Below, piece after piece: positions 11,524 to 55,059 of a stretch of 64,000 nt of DNA. Numbering within the stretch: the stretch's first letter is position 1; each line of letters begins with the position of its first letter. The notes beneath the pieces were generated by a model that had not been told where the DNA came from, searched no databases, and was given only the letters and a program-made list of their open reading frames with translations. The translations under genes and the position numbers were made by a program. This DNA is from Chloroflexota bacterium (GTDB lineage: Bacteria > Chloroflexota > UBA6077 > JACCZL01): positions 45,419 through 109,418 of the forward strand of contig JADZEM010000116.1 of NCBI GenBank assembly GCA_020850535.1, in the 5' to 3' direction.

Positions 11524-13872
11524 GTGATGGACGCGCAGGACGACAGCCCGACCCACCCGCCAGCCACCTCGGCCGAGACGCCAGCCACGCCGGTGGCAGG
11601 CGCGCCAGCGACGGCGAGCGCGCCAGCGTCGAACGCCGGATCCGCCACCGACTCACCAGCGGGGTCGGCCGGGCCTGACGCCGCTGCGCCCGGGCCGATC
11701 GCGCCCGGGCCGATCGCGCCCGGGCCGATCGCGCCCGGGCCGATCGCGCCCGAGCGCGTCCTGCTGGCGTTGCTGCTGGTCGCGGCTGCGCTCGTGCGCC
11801 TCGCCAGCCCCGGCATCTTTGAGCCGAACGTCTCCACGGCTGAGACCGTCCAGCTCGCGGCCGTCGAGGCCATCGCGGCGGATCGCGGGTTCAGCCTGTT
11901 CGGGCAGATGGGGCTGGGCGCATCGGGGCTCGCGCTGCTGCCCGTGACCGTGCTGCGCCTGCTGCGCCCCGAGCCAGAGCTTGCGTTGCGCCTCTACGCC
12001 GCCATCGGCAGCGTGGCGTTCGCCGGACTGTTCTACGCACTCTGCCGGACGCGCTTTGGCGCGGTGGTCAGCCTGACGGCGACGGCGCTGCTGGCGTTCA
12101 GCCCGTGGTCGATCTTCTTCGGACGGAACGGCGAGCTGCAGGCGTTCGCTGGCTGCTGGGCGACCGCCGCGATGCTCCTGCTGCACACCGCGATGCGGCG
12201 CGGCGGCCTGGGGCCGTGGCTCGCCGCCGGCGCGGCCAGCACAGCCGGTCTCTACTGGCATCCCTCGGCGATCTGGACCCTGCCGGTGCTGTGCGTGCCG
12301 GTCGTCTGGATGGCGGCTGTCAACCGCCGCTACCGGTCGCGCCTCTCGGTGGCGCTGTGCTTGCTGCTGGCCGGCGGCCTGCTGGTGGCCGCGCCCCGGG
12401 TTTCGGCGCTGATCTCGGCGCCGCTCTCAACACCCGCCATGCTCGTGGCAGCCGGCGCGCCACTTGACCCGCCCAACACCGTGCGGGCGCGTGCCCAGCA
12501 CCTGATCCGCGCCTTCATCTTCCTGGACCCGAGCGTCCCCGCCGATCAGCGCTACCAGCCGCCAGCTACCGCGCCGCTCGACAGCCTGACCGGCGTGCTG
12601 CTGCTGGCTGGCCTGGGGCTGGCCGCCTGGAAGATGCCATCGCGGGCGCTCCCGCTGGCCGCCCTGCTGATACCGCTGGTCGGCAGTCAGCTGGTCAGCC
12701 CCCGCGTCCCGACGCTTGGGGATGCGCTGGTAGCCCTGCCCGGCCTCTACCTGCTGGTGGCCGAGGCGCTCGAGCGGTTAGTGCTGGTGCTGCCGTTCCC
12801 ATCGATCACCCGGGCCATCCTCCTGGCGGCGATCCCAGCCTACGCCGTGTTCGGCTGGCAGGGGTACGGCGGCTGGATCGGGACGCCGGCCAGCGCACAG
12901 GCCCGCCAGCCCGCCATCGACTATGACGAGATCGACGCCTGGATCGGCGAACTGCAAGCCGGACAGCCAGCGCTGACGGCCAGAGTCTGGCGGGACGAGC
13001 ATCCGCGCCTCTCGACAGGCTCGCGCGTGATCCGCCGGCCGCGTGAGACGGCTGGATCTGCGACGAACACGACGGCGCTGGCGCGACTGGGCCTGCAGCC
13101 GGCCGGGGACGCGCAGGGGGAAGGCGGCGCTCGTGCCGCGCGCACGCTGGCCGCCTCACGGAACGGCGCGGTCTACGCGTCTGACATGACGGGGCACGTG
13201 GCGCGCCTCGACGAGGAACGGCAGCGGCTCACGGCCCTGCAGCAGCGCGCTCCGGCCCTGGAGCAGGTCTCGGACATCGCGGCCGACGCCGACGGGTTCG
13301 TGTACCTCGCCGACTCCGAGCGCTCGCTGATCGTCAAGCTGGCGCCGACCGGCGAGGTCGTGGCGACGCTCGGCGGCGAGTGGGGCATGTACCGCCCTCG
13401 TGGTCTCGCCATCGGGCCAGATGGACGCATCTACGTGGCCGACACCGGCCGCAACCGGCTGGTGATCGGCGAGACCGGCGGCCGGCTCGTCAAGGCCGTC
13501 ACGCCGACGTCGTCGTTCGGGCCGTTCGAGCAGCCGACCGAGGTGGCGGTGGACGCCTCCGGGCGCATCTACGTCGGGCTGCCGGAGATCGGCCGGCTCG
13601 CGATCCTGGACGAGAGCGGCCAGGTGCTGGGCGGCTGGTCGATGGCGAAGGGCAACACCATCGACTCGGCCCGCCTCGCCGTCGTGGCGGACGGCGCGAT
13701 CGCCGTCACCGACCCGCAGGAGTCGAAAGTTCGGCTGCTGGACGCTGACGGTCGCGAGCTGGCGGTGGCCGACGTGCCCGGCAAGCCGTACGGCGTGGCG
13801 TCGGTGGCGGGGCGGCTGTTCGTGGCCGACGCCGCCAGCGGACGGCTGTTCATCTTCGCGCTGGGCCAGTAG
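11524..13872 (+). CDS. Fusion protein: N-terminal GT39/PMT-like polytopic membrane domain plus C-terminal NHL-repeat beta-propeller; paralog 2 of 4.
   Basis: 782 aa. Low-complexity N-terminus with PGPIA x4. The TM-rich region is similar in architecture to the other GT39-like genes. The C-terminus has repeated NHL-like blades: RPRGLAIGPDGRIYVADTGRNRLVI, PTEVAVDASGRIYVG, GVASVAGRLFVADAASGRLFIF. Confidence 0.65.
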   Translation: MMDAQDDSPTHPPATSAETPATPVAGAPATASAPASNAGSATDSPAGSAGPDAAAPGPIAPGPIAPGPIAPGPIAPERVLLALLLVAAALVRLASPGIFEPNVSTAETVQLAAVEAIAADRGFSLFGQMGLGASGLALLPVTVLRLLRPEPELALRLYAAIGSVAFAGLFYALCRTRFGAVVSLTATALLAFSPWSIFFGRNGELQAFAGCWATAAMLLLHTAMRRGGLGPWLAAGAASTAGLYWHPSAIWTLPVLCVPVVWMAAVNRRYRSRLSVALCLLLAGGLLVAAPRVSALISAPLSTPAMLVAAGAPLDPPNTVRARAQHLIRAFIFLDPSVPADQRYQPPATAPLDSLTGVLLLAGLGLAAWKMPSRALPLAALLIPLVGSQLVSPRVPTLGDALVALPGLYLLVAEALERLVLVLPFPSITRAILLAAIPAYAVFGWQGYGGWIGTPASAQARQPAIDYDEIDAWIGELQAGQPALTARVWRDEHPRLSTGSRVIRRPRETAGSATNTTALARLGLQPAGDAQGEGGARAARTLAASRNGAVYASDMTGHVARLDEERQRLTALQQRAPALEQVSDIAADADGFVYLADSERSLIVKLAPTGEVVATLGGEWGMYRPRGLAIGPDGRIYVADTGRNRLVIGETGGRLVKAVTPTSSFGPFEQPTEVAVDASGRIYVGLPEIGRLAILDESGQVLGGWSMAKGNTIDSARLAVVADGAIAVTDPQESKVRLLDADGRELAVADVPGKPYGVASVAGRLFVADAASGRLFIFALGQ
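11693..11755. repeat. In-frame 15-bp tandem repeat (gcccgggccgatcgc) x4 encoding (PGPIA)4 inside the 11524-13872 gene.
   Basis: Four exact direct copies are visible in the sequence at 11693-11755. Confidence 0.9.
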
Positions 13873-13938
13873 GGCCGAGCGTCAGCTTTCGGCGGGCCGA
13901 GCGTCAGCTTTCGGCGGGCCGAGCGTCAGTCCTCGGCG
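13872..13938. repeat. Intergenic 22-bp tandem repeat x3 (gggccgagcgtcagctttcggc; third copy is a variant), each unit hairpin-forming.
   Basis: Seen directly. Copies are at 13872-13893, 13894-13915 and 13916-13938. They lie between convergent genes, and the last copy overlaps the stop of the DUF3090 gene. It probably acts as a tandem terminator. Confidence 0.8.
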
Positions 13939-14466
13939 GCGCGGGCGGCGTGCCCGTTCGAGCGCGGACAGACGTGCTTTCCGGACCCGAGCGGCGCTTC
14001 GCAGGCCGGGCAGCGCGGCCGGCCGGCGGCCAGCAGCGGGACAATCGTCTCGGCCAGCGCCCGCAGCTGCGGACGGGTCGCCTGGCAGCTGAAGCGAGCC
14101 GGACCATCGCCATCGGACTCGACGTCGTGCGCGAGTATCAGGTAGAGCCGCTCGGCCTCGTCGTAGCCGAGCGCAAGCTGCCCGACCTTGAACTCGACGT
14201 CTGGCGAGGCTGCCGCCGCGCCCTCCTGCTGCGGGTTCGACGCCTGACCGCGCGGTGCGGAGGCGCGCAAGTCGAGGGCCGGCAGCCCGGTCAACAGTTG
14301 CTCGATCAGCATCGCGAGGGCCTGTAACTGCTCGCGCTCGACCCACAGCCAGGCCGTCGCGTCGTCACGAATCGCGAGCAGCCGGAACGCGCGCCGCCCC
14401 GGAGGGCCGACCGCGTCTGCCTCAATGCGCACCACGGGACCGAACTCTGTCTGTCCTGACGCCACC
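13926..14466 (-). CDS. DUF3090 family protein.
   Basis: 180 aa from GTG 14466, preceded by the RBS ccaggagg. ...FGPVVRIEADAVGPPGRRAFRLLA...RCPACEAPLGSGKHVCPRSNGH carries the conserved C-terminal Cys/His cluster of DUF3090. The upstream 34 codons of the ORF-track lack an RBS and homology. Confidence 0.7.
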
Positions 14467-16393: not shown

Positions 16394-16478
16394 GGTGGGG
16401 AAGAGGGGACTTGAACCCCTACGCCTTGCGGGCACATGATCCTAAGTCATGCTCGTCTGCCAATTCCGACACTTCCCC
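16394..16478 (-). tRNA. tRNA-Leu (anticodon TAG), class II with long variable arm; CCA not fully encoded.
   Basis: Reverse complement GGGGAAGTGTCGGAATTGGCAGACGAGCATGACTTAGGATCATGTGCCCGCAAGGCGTAGGGGTTCAAGTCCCCTCTTCCCCACC. Acceptor stem GGGGAAG/CTTCCCC. Anticodon loop CTTAGGA. T-loop GGTTCAAGTCC. Confidence 0.8.
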
Positions 16479-16538: not shown

Positions 16539-16628
16539 TGGCGGAGAGGGAGGGATTCGAACCCTCGACTCCCGGAGGAGTACGCGATTTCCAGTCGCGC
16601 GCACTAGGCCAGGCTATGCGACCTCTCC
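16539..16628 (-). tRNA. tRNA-Ser (anticodon GGA), class II; CCA encoded.
   Basis: Reverse complement GGAGAGGTCGCATAGCCTGGCCTAGTGCGCGCGACTGGAAATCGCGTACTCCTCCGGGAGTCGAGGGTTCGAATCCCTCCCTCTCCGCCA. Anticodon loop CTGGAAA. Long variable arm. T-loop GGTTCGAATCC. Confidence 0.8.
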
Positions 16629-29732: not shown

Positions 29733-30458
29733 ATGCACGTCGTCGTCAATCAGAAGCTGATCACCACCCGTGTCAGGTTCGCCAGCGCGGCGCATCTCGG
29801 CGCACTCGCCGTGTTCGCCGTGGGGCTCTACATCTCCTGGTCGAACCCCGAGCCGTCGCTCGAACAGATGGGCATGGCCTACGGGGCCATCATCATCGGC
29901 CTGATCCTCTACAACGTCGGGCAGGTCTTCCTGCGGCGGTTCGGGCCGCGCAACCGGCAGGATGCCGTCCTGGTCAAGACGCTCAAGAGCCTGGACCGAC
30001 GGTTCCACTTCGTCGCCTTCGCCTCCACGAAGCTGCCCGACTATCTGCTCGTCGGGCCAGCCGGCATCCAGGTGATCGTGACGCGGACGCACGACGGCAG
30101 CATCTCCTGCCGCTCGAACACCTGGAGTCGCGACGCGGGGTCGGGGTTCAAGCGGCTCAGCGGCCTGTTCGGCGGGCAGCCGTTCGGCGATCCGGGCGAG
30201 GATGCCGCGAAGGCCATCGCCAGCGTCCGCAAGAAGCTGGCTGAGGGTGGCATCCCCGAGACAAGCCAGCCGCCCGTCGACGCGGTCATCGCGTTCACCA
30301 ACCCGGCCGCCAAACTACGGATCGACGGCAGCACCTACCCCGTCACCAACCTCAAGGGCCTGCGCGGAACGATTCGCGGCGGGGGCGGCAAGGCATCGCG
30401 CGACCGTGCGCTTGACGAGCGGGCGGCCGAGCGGGTGGTGCAGGCGCTCACGGGATGA
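29733..30458 (+). CDS. NERD (nuclease-related) domain membrane protein.
   Basis: 241 aa. Two N-terminal TM helices, then FHFVAFASTKLPDYLLVGPAGIQVIVTRTHDG, which resembles the NERD core. A -10-like TATAAT is at 29604-29609 upstream. The stop overlaps the subtilase start (ATGA). Confidence 0.55.
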   Translation: MHVVVNQKLITTRVRFASAAHLGALAVFAVGLYISWSNPEPSLEQMGMAYGAIIIGLILYNVGQVFLRRFGPRNRQDAVLVKTLKSLDRRFHFVAFASTKLPDYLLVGPAGIQVIVTRTHDGSISCRSNTWSRDAGSGFKRLSGLFGGQPFGDPGEDAAKAIASVRKKLAEGGIPETSQPPVDAVIAFTNPAAKLRIDGSTYPVTNLKGLRGTIRGGGGKASRDRALDERAAERVVQALTG

Positions 30459-33058
30459 ACACCAGCGCTGCTCGCAGCCGTGGCGTCGGTGGCGGGTGGA
30501 GGCGGCTGATCGCAGCCATGCTCACCCTTGCGCTGATCGCTGGCTGCATTCCGAGCAGCGATCCAGCGGCGGAAGCGCCAGCCGGTCAGACCGCCGAGCA
30601 GGCCGACGCGGGCCTCGTTCCGGGGCACGTGGTCGTCATCGTCGGGGCCGATGCATCGCTGCCGGCGGTCCTGGACGACGCGATCGGCGGAAGCATTCGC
30701 CTCCTCGACACGCTCCCCGAGCTGCGGGCTGCCGTCCTTGGCGTGCCGCTCGGGCGGGAGGCGGCGGCCATCGCACAGCTCCAGCACGATCCACGGATCG
30801 TGAGCGCCCAGCGGAGCGCCGTCCTCAGCACGCTGACGGTCCCCGATGACCCGATCTACAAGGAGTTTCAGTGGGGCGTCCGCAAGATCGGCATGGAGAC
30901 CGTCTGGGATGTCACCACCGGCAGCCCTGATGTGATCGTGGCGGTGCTCGACACTGGCGTGGACGAGGCCCACCCCGACCTTGAGCCGAACGTCATCGAC
31001 GGCTACGACTTCGTGAACGACGACCCGGACGCCTGGGACGACTCGTCGCACGGGACGCATGTGGCGGGCGTCATCGCCGCCGTCGGCGACAACGACGAGG
31101 GGACGGCCGGCATGACGTGGCGCTCCAAGATCATGCCGATCAAGGTGCTGGACGCGAAAGGCCTGGGACCGGACGCTGCCGTCTCTAAGGGCATCATCTA
31201 CGCCGTCGAGAACAAGGCGCGGATCATCAACCTCTCGTCCGGGACGCCGTATCAGTCGAAACTGCTGGACGACGCCGTCAAGTTTGCTGAGCGCCGTGGC
31301 GTGCTGGTCGTCGCGGCGGCCGGCAACACCGGCGACAAGGGCAACGAGGTCATCTACCCGGCCGCGTACGCGAATGTACTGGCCGTGGGAGCCACCGACG
31401 AGAAGGACCAGGCGCCGCCATTCTCCCAGCGGCAGCCGTATGTGGCCATCGCGGCCCCCGGCGTCGATATCCCTGGGCCAGCGTGGCGCGACGCCGGCAA
31501 CGGCCCCTACATCCTGCACACCGGCACCTCGGCGGCGGCCCCACACGTCTCCGGCCTCGCAGCCCTGCTGCTCTCGATCCAGCCGACGCTCTCGCCCCAG
31601 CAGATCCGAGACATCATCATCGGCACGGCGGATCAGGTGAACCCACGCTCGCGAGATGCTTTCCTGGGCGCGGGACGCATCAACGCCCTGAAGGCGGTCA
31701 ACTCGCTGCGCCCGATTCCCGTGCCGACGCGCCCGGTCATCCGCCCGACGGCCACGCCCGAGCGGCTGCCAGGGACGCCAGCCGTGCCGCAGGCGCCACG
31801 TATCGTCCTGCCGTCGATCAAGCCGCTGCCACAGCCTGGCCCGCTTCCGGAGGAGCCGATCTCCTGGTTCTTCGCCGAGGGCAACACCACGGCCGGCTTC
31901 GAGACCTGGCTGACCATTCAGAACCCGATGCCCGCGCCGGCCTCGGCGCGCGTGACGTTCATGACCCAGGATGGACCGGTCGCACGGCAGACCGTCGTGG
32001 TGCCGCCCAGCTCCCGCAAGAGCCTGCACGTCAACGAGATCGTGCCGGGCGCGCTGGTGGCGACGCGGGTCGACTCCAACACGCCTGTCTTCGCCGAGCG
32101 CACGGTGTACTTCGGGCACGACGCCATCGGCGGCATCGGCACGCGGTCCGGCGCGCGCTCGTGGTACCTCGCCGAAGGCTCGACGCAGCCGCCGTTTGAC
32201 ACCTGGATTCTCCTGCTGAACCCGAACGACGAGGAGACCGTCGCCCACCTGACGTTCATGCTGGAGAACGGCGGGACCATCGAGGCCACCCAGCCGCTGC
32301 CGCCGCAATCTCGCGTCAGCTTCGACTCGAACGATGTCATCGAGTCGGCCGGGTTCGCCACCGAAGTCCGCGCCGATCTACCCATCGTGGTCGAGCGGTC
32401 GATGTACTTCGGGTCCGGCGGCGGCCACGGGACCATCGGCGTCAAGACGCCCGGCAAGACCTGGTTCCTGGCCGAGGGCGACAGCCGCCCGGGCGTGGAC
32501 ACCTGGATCCTGCTCCAGAACCCGAGCGCCACCGACGTCGCCAACGTCTCCGTCACGTTCATCAAGGACGACGGCACGACCGAGGTCGCCTACTACGCGC
32601 TCGATCCACGCACGCGCTTGAGCCTGTTCGCCGATACCGTGGTGCCGAACACGACGTTCGGGGCGCGCATCGACGCCGACCAGCAGATCATCGTCGAGCG
32701 GTCGATCTACCTCGCCAACGGGGCGGGCGGGCATGCATCAGCCGCCGTGCAGATCCCCGAGACGGAGTGGTTTCTGCCGGAGGGGAGCACTCGCGCCCCC
32801 TACCGTGAGATCATCGCCATCCTGAACCCCAGCCCCGAGCAGACGCAGGTGGACTTGACGTTCACCCAGCCGGACGGGCAGCCGCCCGTCACCCAGAGCT
32901 TCGTCATGGAGCCGACGAGCCGCCTGTCCGTCGAGGCCAACAAGTACGTGCCGGACGCCGACATCTCGACCCGGGTGATCGCAGACCACCCGGTCGTGGT
33001 GGAGCGGTCGATGTACTGGGAGCGCGGGGCGACCAGCTCGCCCGGCCTGACCCGATAG
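30455..33058 (+). CDS. S8 subtilisin-like serine peptidase lipoprotein with five tandem ~100-aa C-terminal repeat domains.
   Basis: 867 aa. Lipobox LALIAGC. Catalytic triad contexts VAVLDTGVDEAHPDL, HGTHVAGVIAA, GTSAAAPHVSGLAALL. After a Pro-rich linker, there are 5 repeats each starting W[FY][FL][AP]EG.T and containing TW[IL].[IL].NP. Confidence 0.85.
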   Translation: MNTSAARSRGVGGGWRRLIAAMLTLALIAGCIPSSDPAAEAPAGQTAEQADAGLVPGHVVVIVGADASLPAVLDDAIGGSIRLLDTLPELRAAVLGVPLGREAAAIAQLQHDPRIVSAQRSAVLSTLTVPDDPIYKEFQWGVRKIGMETVWDVTTGSPDVIVAVLDTGVDEAHPDLEPNVIDGYDFVNDDPDAWDDSSHGTHVAGVIAAVGDNDEGTAGMTWRSKIMPIKVLDAKGLGPDAAVSKGIIYAVENKARIINLSSGTPYQSKLLDDAVKFAERRGVLVVAAAGNTGDKGNEVIYPAAYANVLAVGATDEKDQAPPFSQRQPYVAIAAPGVDIPGPAWRDAGNGPYILHTGTSAAAPHVSGLAALLLSIQPTLSPQQIRDIIIGTADQVNPRSRDAFLGAGRINALKAVNSLRPIPVPTRPVIRPTATPERLPGTPAVPQAPRIVLPSIKPLPQPGPLPEEPISWFFAEGNTTAGFETWLTIQNPMPAPASARVTFMTQDGPVARQTVVVPPSSRKSLHVNEIVPGALVATRVDSNTPVFAERTVYFGHDAIGGIGTRSGARSWYLAEGSTQPPFDTWILLLNPNDEETVAHLTFMLENGGTIEATQPLPPQSRVSFDSNDVIESAGFATEVRADLPIVVERSMYFGSGGGHGTIGVKTPGKTWFLAEGDSRPGVDTWILLQNPSATDVANVSVTFIKDDGTTEVAYYALDPRTRLSLFADTVVPNTTFGARIDADQQIIVERSIYLANGAGGHASAAVQIPETEWFLPEGSTRAPYREIIAILNPSPEQTQVDLTFTQPDGQPPVTQSFVMEPTSRLSVEANKYVPDADISTRVIADHPVVVERSMYWERGATSSPGLTR

Positions 33059-33105: not shown

Positions 33106-33224
33106 CCGTCATCCCGAGCGGAGTGAGCGTGCGAACGCAGTCGAGGGATCTTCCTCGTCAGTCGTCCCTCACCTGGGGAAGATCCCTCCGCTCCGCTCGT
33201 TCCTCGCCGCGGTCGGGATGACAG
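33106..33224. mobile_element. MITE-like element, copy 1: terminal inverted repeats GTCATCCCGAGCGG ... CCGCGGTCGGGATGAC flanking an internal hairpin (gagggatcttcc...ggaagatccctc).
   Basis: Seen directly. The right end, cgctcgttcctcgcCGcggtcgggatgaca, matches copy 2 at 42907-42936 with 2 mismatches. It is intergenic, immediately after the subtilase stop. Confidence 0.5.
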
Positions 33225-33450
33225 ACGGGAGGGCGTTTCTCGCTGCTGTCAGGTTGACGATGGGCACCGAGCGACCCTGCGATTCACGTCTGCCGAGCCA
33301 CTTGTCCGGCGCCGGACAGTTGCTACGAGAAACTGGCACGGACGTTGCCACCCCTCTTCTGCCAACGTCCGTGCGCGAAGCGCTGCTGCACCGTCGCCGG
33401 TCTCCAAGGCGGCGCTCTCGCCGGGCCATCCTCCGTAGAGGGACACGACG

Positions 33451-33723
33451 ATGGCTCATCACTTCAACGTGCGCTGCATGCTGTGTGGCCGAAACGCCGG
33501 ACTCGTTCGCGCGGGCGTCTTCCATCGACTGCCGGACACTCCACCCCTGACCGCTCGTGGCAGCCGCTCGACGTGCGGCTACTGTCGCGGGAGCCTCTAC
33601 CTCGAACCGGACAACGGCCCCGTGTCACTGGTGGCCTCAACAGCCGAGCCGCAACAGGCTCAGCCTCGACGGTCAGGCCGAGCGGCGGTCGCGCAGCAGA
33701 CGGTGCGCCGCCGCTCGGCCTGA
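33451..33723 (+). CDS. Small zinc-ribbon protein (90 aa).
   Basis: MAHHFNVRCMLCGRN...STCGYCRGSLYLE has two CxxC pairs. The RBS AGAGGGA is 7 nt upstream. The basic C-terminal tail is low complexity. Confidence 0.45.
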   Translation: MAHHFNVRCMLCGRNAGLVRAGVFHRLPDTPPLTARGSRSTCGYCRGSLYLEPDNGPVSLVASTAEPQQAQPRRSGRAAVAQQTVRRRSA

Positions 33724-33801: not shown

Positions 33802-34152
33802 GTGACCCACCGAGACGAGCTGGAAGTCCAGGCCCGCGAGCAGGCCGATGTGCTGCTGGAGTACCTCGTCCAGCGGTCGGAACAGGTCGAGTATCGCCAG
33901 GGCACCTACCTGTTGGCCGCGCTGGCCGCCGAGCTTGGCGGCATCGTGCAGCGGCGCTGCTGGGAGTTGGCGAAGGAGGGCGATCCGTCCTGGGAGATGG
34001 CGGCCGGCGAGGCCGAGACGCTGATCAACGCCGCCTGGCGCTGTATGGCCTCGGTGGATGGCCTGATCGAGCAGGACGCCCGCCGCATCCGCGAGCAGGA
34101 GGCCCGGCTCGAACGGGAGCGCCAGCAGCGCGGCGACGAGCCCCCGCACTGA
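33802..34152 (+). CDS. Hypothetical protein (116 aa), helical and charged.
   Basis: GTG start. It has high GC3 in frame and a non-repetitive composition (EYLVQRSEQVEYRQGTYLLAALAAELGGIVQRRCWELAKEGDPSWEM...). The antisense 200-aa ORF is Arg/Gly-rich and was judged spurious. Confidence 0.45.
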   Translation: MTHRDELEVQAREQADVLLEYLVQRSEQVEYRQGTYLLAALAAELGGIVQRRCWELAKEGDPSWEMAAGEAETLINAAWRCMASVDGLIEQDARRIREQEARLERERQQRGDEPPH

Positions 34153-42595: not shown

Positions 42596-42837
42596 GCACG
42601 CATGCGTCTGCCCCACGCCTACAGCGGTTCTCTCGGGCCTCGATCCCGACAGTCGTCGCCCTAACCAGGAGGGGCTGACAGGATCAACGGCAAGGAAACC
42701 CGCTGTAGTGCTGTGCTGTGCTGTGCAACGTGCTGGGGAATGCCCACTGGGGGCAGACAAGTCTCCATGATTCTCGGATACGTCACATGATGCTGCACGA
42801 TAGGACAATCTGGAGTAAAAAATGCAACATACCATAT

Positions 42838-42936
42838 CGTCCTGAGCGCAGCGAAGGATCTCACCCAATAACGGTCACTTGTTGCATCAGCGGGTGAGAT
42901 CCCACTTCGCTCGTTCCTCGCGTCGGTCGGGATGAC
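42838..42936. mobile_element. MITE-like element, copy 2 (left end GTCCTGAGCGCAGCGAAGG, internal hairpin gaaggatctcaccc/gggtgagatcc, right end cgctcgttcctcgcGTcggtcgggatgaca).
   Basis: Seen directly. The right end matches copy 1. It is embedded in a low-GC intergenic region. Confidence 0.5.
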
Positions 42937-43005
42937 AAACCAATCGCGTGCGGCGTCGCCAAGAACGAGCCGAGGCCGGTAGGCTCTGTGATGGCGATGG
43001 CCGAT

Positions 43006-44136
43006 CTAGCGAGCCATGAGGGCCGAGTTGACGGCGTCCAGCGTCGGCGGGATCGGCACGGCGCGCCCGCCGTCCGCCGGCAGCCAGCGCTGATCCTTGA
43101 GGCCGGTGCCGCTCACCAGGGCCACCACCGACTCGCCCGACGCCGCCAGCCGGTCGCGGTCCACGATCACACCGGCCAGCGCCGCCGCCCCGGCCGGCTC
43201 AGCCAGCAGGCCGGCGCCGCGGGCGAGCGTCGCGATGGCCGTCCGCAGGTCGTCGTCGGTGACCGACAGCCACGAGCCGCCCGTCCGCTGCACGGCTTCG
43301 AGCGCTTCCTGCCCGAAGTACGGATCGCCGACGTCGATGCCGTCCGCGAACGTCTGTGTGGCCATCGGCTCCCACCGGGTACGGCCGGCCGCCACCGCGC
43401 GCACGAGCGGCGACGCCCCGCTGACCTGCACCCCGACCACGCGCGGCAGTCGGTCGGCGACTCCGCAACGAATCAGCTCCTCGCAGCCGCGGACGAACGC
43501 CGCCAGCGTGACGCCGTCGCCGACGGGCAGGTAGACCACGTCGGGCATCGCCCGGCCAAGCTGCTCCCAGACCTCGAACGCGACGGTCTTCTTCGCCTGC
43601 ATCGGCAGCGGGCTGGTGGCCGTGTTCCGGTTGTACCAGCCGAATCGCTCGCAGGCAGCGTCACAGAGGCGGTAGGCCGTCTCGTAGGGCGCGTCGACCA
43701 GCAGGACCGTCGCCCCGAACGAGCGCATAAACTGGACCTTGGCCGGCGAGACCGTCCGCGCCGAGACGAAGATGTACGCCTGCAAGCCCATCGCCGCCGC
43801 GCCGGCCGCCAGCGAACAGGCCACGTTGCCGCTCGACGCGCAGGCGATCGCGGTCGCTCCGGTCCGAACGGCGTCGACCGCGCACAACGCCGTCGCCCGG
43901 TCTTTGTTTGAGCCGGTCGGCGTGCGCGTCTCGTCCTTGAGCCAGAGGCGCGGCAGCCCGAGCGCCGCCCGCAGCCCCGCCGACCCGACGAGCGGTGTTC
44001 CGCCGATCTGCAGCGGGTAGACGCCGTGGCCGTCGAGCGGCAGGAGCCCCCGCCAGCGCCACATACCCTCGCCAGCGTCTGGCGCGGCAGGGATCAGATC
44101 AGGACCATACGGATAGGTCCGCGGCACGTGAACCAT
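43006..44136 (-). CDS. Threonine synthase-like PLP-dependent enzyme (tryptophan-synthase-beta fold); second paralog in the window.
   Basis: 376 aa from ATG 44136, with the RBS GAGGGGA. ...LWLKDETRTPTGSNKDRATALCAVDAV...ACASSGNVACSLAAGAAAMGL carries the PLP-lysine motif. Confidence 0.75.
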   Translation of the reverse strand: MVHVPRTYPYGPDLIPAAPDAGEGMWRWRGLLPLDGHGVYPLQIGGTPLVGSAGLRAALGLPRLWLKDETRTPTGSNKDRATALCAVDAVRTGATAIACASSGNVACSLAAGAAAMGLQAYIFVSARTVSPAKVQFMRSFGATVLLVDAPYETAYRLCDAACERFGWYNRNTATSPLPMQAKKTVAFEVWEQLGRAMPDVVYLPVGDGVTLAAFVRGCEELIRCGVADRLPRVVGVQVSGASPLVRAVAAGRTRWEPMATQTFADGIDVGDPYFGQEALEAVQRTGGSWLSVTDDDLRTAIATLARGAGLLAEPAGAAALAGVIVDRDRLAASGESVVALVSGTGLKDQRWLPADGGRAVPIPPTLDAVNSALMAR

Positions 44137-50648: not shown

Positions 50649-52347
50649 CGCCGCGCGACTGCTCAAGCGGCTGCTGTCACGCCCAAGCGCCCCGCAGCCC
50701 GATCCGCTCCCGTCCGGCCACATCCTGCCAGACTGGAACGCCCTGCTCGACACCGACCGCGCCCTCTGGGAGCGCGCGAAAGCTCAGGCTCAGGCCGGCC
50801 CGGGCGTGCTGCTCGCCACGAACGTCGGCGGGCACTCGCCGGCCACGGTCGTCGAGAGCGTCCTGGCCGTGGCGCTGACGCTGCGCGGCGCACGCGTCCA
50901 CACGCTCGTCTGCGACAAGGTCATGCCGGCGTGCCTGCGAGCGCAGGCGGACAACGTCCTCGATCCCGGCGTCTTCTCTCGCTACGAGCTGCCAGAGAAG
51001 CTGTGCGGCAGTTGCTACCCCATCGGCGAGCACGTTTACGGGCCGCTCGGGCTGCCGCACCACCGATTCTCGGAGCTGCTCTCGCCGGACGAGCAGCGGG
51101 CCTGCCGCGCACTGGCCGACTCGACGCCCTACGAGGCGATCCCTGGCGCCATCGTGGACGGGCTGCCCATCGGGGAGCAGGCCTACGCCGGGGCGCTCCG
51201 CTACTTCGCGCGGGGCGACCTGGACGACGAGCCGTACGGCGAGAGCGTGCTGCGCCGCTACTTCGAGGCCTCGTTGCAGGCCGCCAGCGTGACCCGCTCG
51301 CTGCTCGCCACCCGCCGATTCGAGGCCGCCTGTATGCACCACGGCATCTACGTGCCCCAGGGCGTCAGCAGCGCCGTCGCGCGGCAGCTTGGCGTGCGCG
51401 TCTCGACCTGGAACCCGGCCTACCGCAGCAACTGCTTCATCTTCAGCCTACACGACACCTACCACCACACCCTGTTGGACGAGCCGACGGAGTCGTGGGA
51501 CACGATGCCCTGGACCGCCCAGATGGAAGAGCAGATCCTGAACTACCTCAAGAGCCGCTGGTCCGGCTCGCGTGACTGGATCTGGTTCCACGACCGTCCA
51601 GACGAGGACTTTGCGAAGTACGCCGCCGAGATCGGGCTGGACCTCGGGAAGCCGATCGTCGGGATGCTCTCCAACGTCATCTGGGACGCGCAACTGCACT
51701 ACCGTGCCAACGCCTTCCCGACTATGCTCGCCTGGGTGATCGAGACGATCCGGTACTTCGAGCGGCGGCCAGACCTCCAGCTGCTGCTGCGGGTCCACCC
51801 CGCCGAGCTGCGGGGCACGGCACGCTCGCGCCAGCCGCTGGTGGACGAGATCGCGCGGGCATTCCCGACGCTCCCGCCCAACGTCTTCATCATCCCGCCA
51901 GAGTCACAGGTCTCGACCTACGCCGCGATGGCCCAGGCGAACGCCGTCATCATCTTCGGCACCAAGACCGGCGTCGAGCTGACCTCGATGGGTATTCCCG
52001 TGATCGTGGCCGGCGAGGCCTGGATTCGGAACAAGGGGCTGACCCTCGACGCCAGCTCGGCGGCCGGCTACTTCGAGATCCTCGACGGCCTGCCACTGGC
52101 CGCGCGGATGCCGGCCGAACAGGTCGCCCGCGCCCGCAAGTACGCCTACCATTTCTTCTTCCGGCGGATGGTCCCGCTGGAGTTCATGGAGGTGACCGGC
52201 GCGTGGCCGCCCTACCGCGTGGCGCTCGAATCGCTCGGCGACCTGCTGCCTGGGCGGCACGCCGGGCTGGACATCATCTGCGACGGCATCCTGAACGGCT
52301 CGCCGTTCATCTACCCGGCCGAGGAGCTGGGCGTTCATGACCGCTGA
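50641..52347 (+). CDS. Large GT-B-like protein of unassigned family, paralog A (possibly KpsC/KpsS 'capsule polysaccharide biosynthesis' type).
   Basis: 568 aa and soluble. The C-terminal half has a Rossmann-like NAVIIFGTKTGVELTSMGIPVIVAGEAW. The N-terminal half is Cys-rich: HTLVCDKVMPACLR...CGSCYP. It overlaps its neighbours by 8 and 11 nt. The family assignment is not verifiable from sequence alone. Confidence 0.5.
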   Translation: MPSAARLLKRLLSRPSAPQPDPLPSGHILPDWNALLDTDRALWERAKAQAQAGPGVLLATNVGGHSPATVVESVLAVALTLRGARVHTLVCDKVMPACLRAQADNVLDPGVFSRYELPEKLCGSCYPIGEHVYGPLGLPHHRFSELLSPDEQRACRALADSTPYEAIPGAIVDGLPIGEQAYAGALRYFARGDLDDEPYGESVLRRYFEASLQAASVTRSLLATRRFEAACMHHGIYVPQGVSSAVARQLGVRVSTWNPAYRSNCFIFSLHDTYHHTLLDEPTESWDTMPWTAQMEEQILNYLKSRWSGSRDWIWFHDRPDEDFAKYAAEIGLDLGKPIVGMLSNVIWDAQLHYRANAFPTMLAWVIETIRYFERRPDLQLLLRVHPAELRGTARSRQPLVDEIARAFPTLPPNVFIIPPESQVSTYAAMAQANAVIIFGTKTGVELTSMGIPVIVAGEAWIRNKGLTLDASSAAGYFEILDGLPLAARMPAEQVARARKYAYHFFFRRMVPLEFMEVTGAWPPYRVALESLGDLLPGRHAGLDIICDGILNGSPFIYPAEELGVHDR

Positions 52348-53340: not shown

Positions 53341-55059
53341 GTGAACCCGATCATCCGCCGAGCGCGGACCGCTGTCGCCCGGGCGCTGGGACGCCGACGC
53401 AAGGGTGTGCCGACAGCGCACGATCCGCGCTTCCCGGACTGGCAACAGATCCTGGCCGCCAACCGCGAGCAGTGGGACGCTGCCCGGCGGCGCGCGGCCG
53501 GCGGCCCGCCGGTGCTGGTCGCCAGCACGGTCGGCGGGTACGGCGCCGGCTCGGTGTTCGAGAGTATGCTGTCTGTGGCGCTGACCCTGCGGGGCGCGCG
53601 CGTGCACACCCTGCTCTGCGACCGCGCCCTGCCCGGCTGCCAGCGGGCCGAGTACACGGACGTGCCAGACCCGCGCGTGCTGGTGGACTACCAGTTGCCG
53701 GACCGCCTCTGCGATGGCTGTTTCGCCACCGGCCGCTACAACTTCGCGCCGCTCGGCCTGAGCGACCACCGGGTCGGGGCGCTGGCGTCGCGGGCTGAGA
53801 AACACGAGGCCCGTCGCATCGCGAACGAGACCCCCATCGGCGAGATCCGGGACTTCGCCTGGAATGGCCTGAACATCGGCGAGCACGCCTACGCTGGCGC
53901 GCTCCGCTACTTCGCGCGGGGCGACCTGGAAGCTGAGGCGCTGGGCGAGCCGGTCCTGCGCCGCTACCTGGAAGCCTCGATCCTGATGGCCGCCGCCTCA
54001 ACCCGGTTGATCCAGCAGGAAGGCATCCAGATCGCCGCGTTCAACCACGGGCTGTACGTGCCGCAGGGCGTCCTCGGGGAGGTCTGCCGGCGGCTCGGCG
54101 TGCGGGTTGCCAACTGGAACCCGGCCTACCGCACCTCCTGCTTCATCTTCAGCCACGGCGACACCTATCACCACACGCTGATGGCCGAGCCAACCGAAGC
54201 CTGGGACACGATGGCGTGGACGCCGGCGCTCGAAGCCCAGATTCAGGCGTACCTGAAGAGTCGGTGGTCGGGCTCGCGGGACTGGATCTGGTTCCACGAC
54301 GAGCCAGACGAGGATTTCGCGGCGTATGCCCGCGAGGTCGGCCTGGATCTCAAGAAGCCGATCGTTGGGCTGCTCACCAACGTGATGTGGGACGCCCAGC
54401 TGCACTACCCGGCCAACGCCTTCCCGAGCATGCTGGACTGGGTGCTCCGCACCATCGAGTGGTTCAAGGGCCGTCCCGATCTCCAGCTGCTGATTCGGGT
54501 GCATCCCGCCGAGATCCGAGGGACAGCCCGCTCGCGGCAGCCCCTGGTGCCGGAGATCGAGAAGGCGTTCCCAGACCTGCCGCCGAACGTCTTCATCATC
54601 CCGCCCGAGTCGCAGATCTCGACCTACGCCGCCGTGGCGACCGTGAACGCGGCCATCATCTACGGCACCAAGACGGGCGTCGAGCTGACCTCGTCCGGCA
54701 TCCCGACCATCGTGGCGGGCGAGGCCTGGATCCGAAACAAGGGCATCACCCTGGACGCCTCGTCCCCAGACGACTATTTCGGCATCCTCGACACGCTGCC
54801 GCTCGCGGGCCGGATGCCGCCCGAGCAGATCGAACGGGCCCGCCAGTACGCCTTTCACTTCTTCTTCCGACGGATGGTGCCGGTGCCGGCGATGGTCCCC
54901 ACCAAAGCCGTTCCGCCGTTCCGCGTCGCCATCGACTCGCTGGACGATCTGCTGCCCGGCAAGCAGCCGGGCCTGGACATCATCTGTGACGGCATCCTGC
55001 GCGGCTCGCCGTTCATCTACCCGGCCGAGACCTACGGGCTCCACGACGATGGACGGTAG
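53341..55059 (+). CDS. Large GT-B-like protein of unassigned family, paralog B.
   Basis: 572 aa, collinear with paralog A. For example, NPAYRTSCFIFSHGDTYHHTLMAEPTEAWDTMAWT versus NPAYRSNCFIFSLHDTYHHTLLDEPTESWDTMPWT. GTG start after a 189-bp gap. Confidence 0.5.
   Translation: MNPIIRRARTAVARALGRRRKGVPTAHDPRFPDWQQILAANREQWDAARRRAAGGPPVLVASTVGGYGAGSVFESMLSVALTLRGARVHTLLCDRALPGCQRAEYTDVPDPRVLVDYQLPDRLCDGCFATGRYNFAPLGLSDHRVGALASRAEKHEARRIANETPIGEIRDFAWNGLNIGEHAYAGALRYFARGDLEAEALGEPVLRRYLEASILMAAASTRLIQQEGIQIAAFNHGLYVPQGVLGEVCRRLGVRVANWNPAYRTSCFIFSHGDTYHHTLMAEPTEAWDTMAWTPALEAQIQAYLKSRWSGSRDWIWFHDEPDEDFAAYAREVGLDLKKPIVGLLTNVMWDAQLHYPANAFPSMLDWVLRTIEWFKGRPDLQLLIRVHPAEIRGTARSRQPLVPEIEKAFPDLPPNVFIIPPESQISTYAAVATVNAAIIYGTKTGVELTSSGIPTIVAGEAWIRNKGITLDASSPDDYFGILDTLPLAGRMPPEQIERARQYAFHFFFRRMVPVPAMVPTKAVPPFRVAIDSLDDLLPGKQPGLDIICDGILRGSPFIYPAETYGLHDDGR

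Follow-up and report, generated by a model that had tools for sequence, protein, structure and literature searches.

Two intergenic palindromes in a Chloroflexota contig as probable gene-less doublets of an Ssn-related hairpin repeat family

Two short inverted-repeat elements stand past the 3′ ends of genes in the stretch of Chloroflexota DNA analysed here (64 kb, the whole of which is called the window), and they raise the question of what kind of element they are and which protein, if any, is their partner. A preliminary description, made from the letters of the window, had proposed a non-autonomous mobile element or a REP-like family that might double as terminators. We examined the structure of the two elements, the distribution of related sequences in genomes, metagenome contigs and viral contigs, the genes that lie beside or between such sequences, and the known systems that they resemble.

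Two imperfect palindromes between genes

The two elements are imperfect palindromes at 33108–33222 (115 nt; copy 1) and 42839–42936 (copy 2) that have their ends in common (GTCATCCCGA...TCGGGATGAC). Copy 1 starts 50 nt past the stop codon of an S8 peptidase gene (30455–33058, + strand), and copy 2 ends 70 nt past the stop codon of a gene for a PLP-dependent enzyme (43006–44136, − strand), which confirms the earlier view of a two-copy, intergenic inverted-repeat element. The right ends (33194–33223 and 42908–42937) are identical at 28 of 30 positions, and each copy contains a perfect inner stem, of 12 bp in copy 1 (GAGGGATCTTCC/GGAAGATCCCTC) and of 11 bp in copy 2 (GGATCTCACCC/GGGTGAGATCC); the nearly identical 30-bp right end and the internal perfect hairpin of the preliminary description therefore stand. 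The terminal inverted repeats of about 14 bp that it gave to both copies hold for copy 1, the termini of which (GTCATCCCGAGCG / CGGTCGGGATGAC) are complementary at 12 of 13 positions, but not for copy 2, where the right arm is intact and the terminal repeat is imperfect because the left arm is a shorter variant (GTC--CTGAGCGCAGCGAAGGATCTCACCC). This left arm, which is without part of the tag region, may have decayed.

Each palindrome resolves into two hairpin arms that face each other across an unpaired tip (Table 1). Those of copy 1, termed B and A, are both long and are similar without being identical. An unpaired HGTC tag lies directly 5′ of the hairpin in the window arms (CGTC at 33107–33110 and TGTC before the A arm of copy 1; CGTC and TGTC in copy 2), and the palindrome is directly followed by C in four of four arms, which read GGGATC or GGATC. 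A 20-nt arm pattern gave three exact matches in the window, and the only other close match was the degenerate arm beside copy 1, which is a reiterated outer arm of the sort found at many other copies. Short-query BLAST with the arm consensus sequences recovered no further copies in the 64-kb window.

Table 1. Arms and hairpin tips of the two window elements (window coordinates).
Feature	Coordinates	Strand	Sequence and remarks
Copy 1, B arm	33108–33154	+	GTCATCCCGAGCGGAGTGAGCGTGCGAACGCAGTCGAGGGATCTTCC; preceded by C, giving a CGTC tag; 95% match to the B-arm consensus
Copy 1, unpaired loop at the tip of the long hairpin	33155–33174	none	20 nt between the B and A arms; from folding
Copy 1, A arm	33175–33222	−	GTCATCCCGACCGCGGCGAGGAACGAGCGGAGCGGAGGGATCTTCCCC (minus-strand reading); preceded by T, giving a TGTC tag
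Degenerate extra arm beside copy 1	33232–33258	−	GTCAACCTGACAGCAGCGAGAAACGCC; 33239–33258 has 3 mismatches to the arm pattern
Copy 2, short-type arm	42839–42866	+	GTCCTGAGCGCAGCGAAGGATCTCACCC; preceded by C; without the AT of GTCAT; matches the short-arm consensus GTCATCCTGAGCGCAGCGAAGGATCTC at 23/23
Copy 2, unpaired hairpin tip	42867–42891	none	From folding
Copy 2, A arm	42892–42936	−	GTCATCCCGACCGACGCGAGGAACGAGCGAAGTGGGATCTCACCC (minus-strand reading)

Several other features of the window were recorded in passing. The 410-nt intergenic region at copy 2 is absent from syntenic relatives, which have a hydrolase gene in its place, and the segment beside copy 2 (42600–42838) is unusually AT-rich (55–61% G+C, cf. 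~70% elsewhere) and holds a short run of GCTGT (gtagtgctgtgctgtgctgtgc). A 90-aa ORF (33451–33723, +) with two CxxC pairs (zinc-ribbon-like) is located between copy 1 and the conserved gene that comes next, and is absent at the corresponding place in the relative L149; the C-terminal part of the S8 peptidase gene (31865–33017) contains three repeats of ~300 nt (DUF5719-like). Further away are tandem arrays at 11686–11760 (15-nt unit GCGCCCGGGCCGATC, ~5 copies) and 13872–13947 (22-nt unit GGGCCGAGCGTCAGCTTTCGGC, ~3 copies), two adjacent tRNA genes on the − strand (16396–16478 and 16542–16628), and two segments of 73–83% identity that lie 2,706 nt apart (50796–52323 and 53502–55029) and are probably tandem paralogous genes.

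The arm family, its distribution and the long subtype of the window

The window arms belong to a family with the consensus (T/C)GTC-AT-CCC-GA-GC-GNA-GC-GA-GGG-AT-C, plus longer variants, in which the basic arm is (T/C)GTCATCCCGAGCGNAGCGAGGGATC. Base statistics were taken from 84 distinct short arms found with a scan pattern that left positions 14 and 15 free. Position 14 varied freely (A 27, C 36, G 10, T 11), and position 15 was A in 80 of the 84; the hairpin was followed by C, which the scan pattern did not prescribe, in 82, and the base before GTC was T or C in 74 (T 60, C 14). The predicted fold of a single arm pairs ATCCC with GGGAT around GA-GC-GNA-GC-GA, giving nine stacked positions (5 Watson-Crick, 2 G.A and 2 Watson-Crick pairs), a 3-nt loop and a C-T tail, not CCA. 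At the centre lies the motif GCGNAGC, which together with d(GCGNNAGC) is known as a DNA mini-hairpin (review PMC13037366); as in that motif, the N of the basic-arm core is free and the A is fixed, and the NTS core discussed below reads GCG-MAV-GC. The mini-hairpin is, by contrast, a motif of physical chemistry and not a genetic element, and its relevance to the arms is presumed. Nearest-neighbour folding of a single short arm was no better than that of shuffled sequences (z −0.7); since the energy model gives no advantage, it is from the published properties of GCGNAGC mini-hairpins that we infer any extra stability of the basic arm.

Arms usually occur in facing pairs with the tags outward and 44–265 nt end to end, and 50 such head-to-head dimers were found among the loci. 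The 20-nt pattern matched in 25 viral contigs; a viral scan for the exact right end of the window elements gave no match. A 21-nt pattern matched, among the matches listed, more than 120 genome loci, at least 66 of which have canonical arms, the rest being sequence variants or chance matches within genes of unrelated organisms. According to record titles, the hosts among the matches listed are mostly Acidobacteriota, followed by Gemmatimonadota, Chloroflexota, Alphaproteobacteria and others, and one Chloroflexota MAG (JBBQBU01) contributes seven of the listed loci, several of them at contig ends. The family is thus present in Acidobacteriota, Gemmatimonadota, Chloroflexota and Alphaproteobacteria as well as in soil phage contigs. 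Outside related phage contigs, no protein family recurred beside the arms.

Six related soil phage contigs (L003, L009, L011, L020, L022 and L024) each hold 5–7 solo arms, all on one strand and apparently opposite to the genes; a terminase-like ORF in L003 seems to contain one arm in frame (~3477). Such a bias would be relevant to any nuclease that cuts only one strand.

In the window subtype, the A and B arms carry an insertion of 27–29 nt between CCC and GGG that replaces the basic interior. Scanning for the long A arm yielded 38 metagenome contigs, and the long A/B doublet was found again, in the exact form of the window, in about 25 contigs of Chloroflexota type. A set of 23 non-identical doublets, drawn from metagenome contigs and genome loci, has a uniform plan of A arm, variable tip of ~20 nt and B arm, ~108 nt in total. 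Conservation extends to the B arm, which was absent from the search pattern, and to the mismatches that distinguish A from B, and it follows that the doublet is passed on as one unit. Partial outer arms frequently occur in tandem repeats, and 27 of 28 doublets were intergenic according to a home-made, and crude, GC3 gene caller.

Comparison with relatives of the window showed presence and absence of copies. None of four contigs syntenic with the window (75–79% nucleotide identity) has a copy after the PLP-enzyme gene, and one syntenic contig ends inside a copy that lies 125 nt upstream of the orthologue of window gene 33802–34152, a position that differs from that of copy 1. Related phage contigs likewise have arms present or absent at orthologous intergenic sites. 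No clean empty site was found among the syntenic relatives or the phage contigs, and no precise boundary can be drawn because the relatives are only 75–79% identical and their intergenic regions are rearranged.

The A arm itself is a target of other elements. In four contigs (L162, L170, L177 and L183) it is interrupted at exactly one point, between GGAG and GGATC (in full, between ...GAGCGRAGYGGAG and GGATCTC...), and in L170 (transposase at 248–1405) and L183 (transposase at 422–1666) a complete IS110-family element (Pfam DEDD_Tnp_IS110 and Transposase_20) occupies the break, and the rest of the doublet resumes beyond it. IS110-family elements target REP sequences in other bacteria. About 60 nt in from its own end, each arm-inserted element has a AGGGATCTC stretch that could serve as a guide segment. 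With its fixed position in the arm, the insertion point gives studies of these recombinases a natural collection of target sites.

A small GIY-YIG gene between inverted arms

A tagged hairpin of this general form is the substrate of a recently described enzyme. SsnA, a single-domain GIY-YIG nuclease of ~100 aa, binds and cuts the dRS3-containing NTS hairpin (CGTCATTCCCGCGMAVGCGGGAATCYRG); it requires single-stranded DNA and attacks just one of the two strands (Chenal et al. 2025, PMC11893778). Binding by SsnA depends above all on the C after the NTS palindrome, and cleavage above all on the three bases before it; ssnA sits between NTS copies, and thousands of homologues across phyla, reported mainly in Pseudomonadati, are flanked by related motifs (PMC11893778).

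A search with a GIY-YIG probe sequence returned 7,994 small PF01541 proteins, of which the named ones came from Gemmatimonadaceae and Acidobacteria, and loci for a gene-association test were picked by protein similarity alone, blind to repeats. In six of six independent loci (L190, L200, L201, L203, L204 and L209), a small GIY-YIG gene of ~100 aa lies between inverted arms of the family, with the forward arm 30–194 nt upstream. In L190, L200, L201 and L209 the TGA stop codon of the gene lies inside the terminal GGGATGAC, and an arm-encoded C-terminal peptide, D[PS]S(S)LRS(S)[GE], ends 38 of 120 homologues among the matches listed. The gene of L209 is flanked by arms of the B type of the window (GTCATCCCGAGCGGAG...AGTCGAGGGATC). 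One arm-flanked protein (P0221) is 48% identical to its sole homologue in a Neisseria gonorrhoeae chromosome; that gonococcal ORF is surrounded by NTS copies and has Y6, Y17 and E64, exactly the residues mutated in the SsnA paper (PMC11893778). Judged by these likenesses of sequence, the arm-flanked GIY-YIG proteins are SsnA homologues. NCBIfam holds no model for them, and the PDB only distant UPF0213 structures.

The gene-less doublets and the gene-bearing units also share an inner extension, CTGCTT...AAGCAG, which in full units abuts the gene, and this fits an origin of doublets by internal deletion. Calling the window elements non-autonomous derivatives is fair, because elsewhere there is a longer form in which the same inverted ends enclose a protein gene, and the REP-like alternative of the preliminary description also survives insofar as the elements are dispersed, multi-copy, non-coding and of the REP kind; the cognate gene, however, is a small GIY-YIG single-strand nuclease and not a transposase of a known IS family. 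We found no Ssn-like ORF in the 64-kb window, nor in 188 loci (~1.38 Mb) that are mostly dispersed copies, and three other GIY-YIG probe sequences gave no match in the loci and one weak viral match in an alignment scan.

Two loci with the gene showed peculiarities of their own. The unit of arm, ssn and arm in L199 has a single sequence on either side of it, in opposite orientations; this reflects either an inversion across the arms or an artefact of fold-back assembly at the palindrome. In L200, ~300 nt downstream of the GIY-YIG gene, lies a copy of a 'class 3' HUH-associated repeat (CCGAGCCGCGACCGTAAGGGAGCGG), a hairpin with the same GA-bulged layout as the arms. This repeat class (CCGAGCCGCGACCGTNAGGGAGCGG, CnGA-footed; PMC6006769) was considered as a relative of the arms on account of its similar architecture and rejected, as its sequence is different and it was seen once, in L200.

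The closest parallel to the arms is therefore NTS/dRS3 and the wider class of Ssn-related motifs (SRM). Shared features are the (C/T)GTC tag, AT and a run of C at the start of the hairpin, a C as the next base after it, intergenic copies by the hundred, often in inverted pairs, and, at the level of the family, a single-domain GIY-YIG gene of ~100 aa bracketed by inverted copies of the motif. The arms differ in their tandem G.A mismatches and 3-nt GNA loop, in the long insertion that the window subtype has where SRM has a loop of 3–5 nt, in the existence of two arm types (A and B), and in their hosts (Chloroflexota, Acidobacteriota and Gemmatimonadota). The published SRM pattern, HGTCWYN(0-2)YYVSBRHN(0-5)WNVSBRGN(0-2)RNCYNB, matches NTS but no short, A or B arm, and has no match inside either window element; it is a search aid drawn from 29 genomes and not a functional definition (PMC11893778).

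A second parallel is formed by the CGTC-tagged REPs, of which Neisseria dRS3 is one family and which have a CGTC or TGTC tag, a stem that starts with AT and predominantly head-to-head dimers, with no transposase found beside them (Di Nocera, De Gregorio and Rocco 2013, PMC3733652). The arms agree with these REPs in the tag, in AT at the first two stem positions, roughly in stem length (8–9 bp there, nine stacked positions including two G.A pairs in the basic arm), and in being intergenic, mainly head-to-head dimers with common heterodimers (23 distinct copies keep the A/B heterodimer) and without an adjacent transposase. The 2013 study reports CGTC-tagged REPs only from Proteobacteria, Chlorobi, Bacteroidetes, Spirochaetes and Thermotogae and gives them loops of 4–5 nt and a CCA tail (PMC3733652); the arms, unlike these, have a loop of 3 nt or a long insertion and a C-T tail, a comparison that covers the features described for its four families. 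Searching the literature with literal sequence strings returned nothing relevant.

Taken together, these observations lead us to read the two window elements, with a probability of about 0.72, as gene-less head-to-head doublets of two hairpin arms from an Ssn-related repeat family, the part that concerns their role as substrates in this bacterium being what we infer. As a divergent member of a kind of element that is known and was described recently, the doublets are neither a private family nor a new kind. The proposed course of events begins with the anatomy of the arm. An unpaired (C/T)GTC tag precedes a hairpin with AT and CCC at its start and GGG and AT at its end, and the conserved C comes directly after it; in the basic arm, the interior GA-GC-GNA-GC-GA has tandem G.A mismatches around the GCGNAGC mini-hairpin. 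This anatomy matches that of NTS/dRS3 and other Ssn-related motifs, which Ssn cuts as single strands, and the same is predicted for the arms described here. Relative to the full unit, the window elements would be what a MITE is to its parent element, with a short variable tip between the facing arms. Whenever the DNA becomes single-stranded, during replication, repair or uptake, the arms may fold and be bound or cut by an Ssn homologue that we assume to be encoded elsewhere in the genome. The doublets presumably arose from a gene-bearing unit and may be spread by one; if the 3′ ends of neighbouring transcripts are affected at all, this would be a secondary consequence.

Competing explanations and significance

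Membership of the family does not by itself make the window copies active. They could be dead relics of Ssn-type descent, the nuclease having been lost from the genome or never having been present, that persist neutrally as stable imperfect palindromes. The left arm of copy 2, truncated at the tag, the window without an Ssn ORF and the mere two copies in 64 kb agree with this, as does the report that 81% of repeat-rich genomes, and not all, have an ssn gene (PMC11893778). Copy 1, however, is intact and close to the subfamily consensus, and the many near-identical copies in related Chloroflexota MAGs point to recent spread or maintenance, and we consider a dead relic unlikely.

An element that acts primarily at the RNA level, as a terminator, as a stabiliser of mRNA 3′ ends or as a small RNA, would account for the position of both copies just past stop codons, and E. 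coli REPs do stabilise upstream mRNA. Folding of both strands, which the preliminary description had suggested as a check, is also strong; as RNA, both copies fold far better than shuffled sequences (z −5.4/−6.7 for copy 1 and −4.0/−3.0 for copy 2), and as DNA the scores are z −3.8 and −4.7, respectively. Neither stem, on the other hand, is followed by the T-tract of an intrinsic terminator, which speaks against the terminator role raised at the outset. Neither the window nor 17 related loci matched an Rfam family at gathering score, and a threshold of E ≤ 10 added only noise. Covariation is almost absent, compensatory change being seen in only 2 of 32 pairs of the doublet hairpin, too few to indicate selection on structure. 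The two window copies, moreover, have opposite orientations relative to the upstream gene, and doublets in other genomes also occupy what appear, from crude gene calls, to be tandem and divergent intergenic regions. A primary function in RNA is accordingly improbable.

Strict REPINs, i.e. REP doublets mobilised in trans by a RAYT (an IS200-like Y1 tyrosine transposase), share with the window elements the general form of a 4-nt tag and a hairpin, the inverted doublets, the intergenic position and the lack of a target-site duplication, and the REP/REPIN-RAYT systems of E. coli and Pseudomonas also have a single-copy cognate gene flanked by repeats. The RAYT enzyme, by contrast, is a HUH tyrosine transposase that goes with GTAG or GTGG tags, whereas the arm tag is GTC, and REPs are lineage-specific, whereas the arm is nearly identical across phyla. 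An HMM of 17 RAYT/TIRYT sequences (PMC3733652 supplement) detected one Y1 gene fragment (L006) in the arm-bearing loci (1.38 Mb), and one more Y1 gene (L188) came from viral contigs, which were searched separately; both are flanked by palindrome families different from the arms (GCGCAGGCTTCAGCCTGTGG... and CCCACCCTCCCCGAC..., respectively). As the 2013 study likewise found no transposase next to CGTC-tagged REPs (PMC3733652), mobilisation by a RAYT is very improbable. The two genes are RAYT-like in their own right (L006, 1209–1795; L188, 1990–3160) and have palindromes of their own, that of L188 (CCCACCCTCCCCGAC-N7-GTCGGGGAGGATGGG) being inserted also inside its Y1 gene.

A classical MITE, that is, a deletion derivative of an IS with a DDE transposase, would likewise be short, gene-less, bounded by terminal inverted repeats and present in many copies, as is the Neisseria Correia element, but it is hardly tenable here, as MITEs have target-site duplications and a transposase-bearing parent IS and neither is seen: no direct repeats occur at the boundaries of the window copies or of the 28 doublets inspected, the flanks of which are often mutually complementary and tend to extend the palindrome; no transposase recurs as a neighbour of the copies; and the only transposases at copies are those of the IS110-family elements, which are inserted into an arm and not bounded by arms. 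The target-site duplication and the cognate transposase that the preliminary description had thought of looking for were thus both absent from the copies and loci examined.

The doublet of an Ssn-related repeat remains the preferred reading, and it admits a bolder extension. Chenal et al. raised, without showing it, the idea of a domesticated mobile element (PMC11893778). The unit of arm, ssn and arm could possibly be a self-propagating mobile element that moves via single-stranded DNA and a GIY-YIG nuclease instead of a transposase, with the gene-less doublets as its MITEs, and that has crossed phyla and entered phages, while IS110-family elements evolved to home into its arms. We put this forward tentatively and hold it to be the less probable case; the inner junctions common to doublets and gene-bearing units and the presence or absence of copies at orthologous sites agree with it, short of proof.

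For annotation, the two window elements can be labelled Ssn-type hairpin repeats instead of unknown regulatory RNAs or terminators. The published SRM pattern misses a variant that is very abundant in soil phyla (Acidobacteriota, Gemmatimonadota and Chloroflexota) and in phages, and the reach of Ssn proteins and their repeats has therefore probably been underestimated. The puzzle of 2013, that of CGTC REPs without a transposase, now has a candidate partner, an Ssn-type gene, for this sequence type too.
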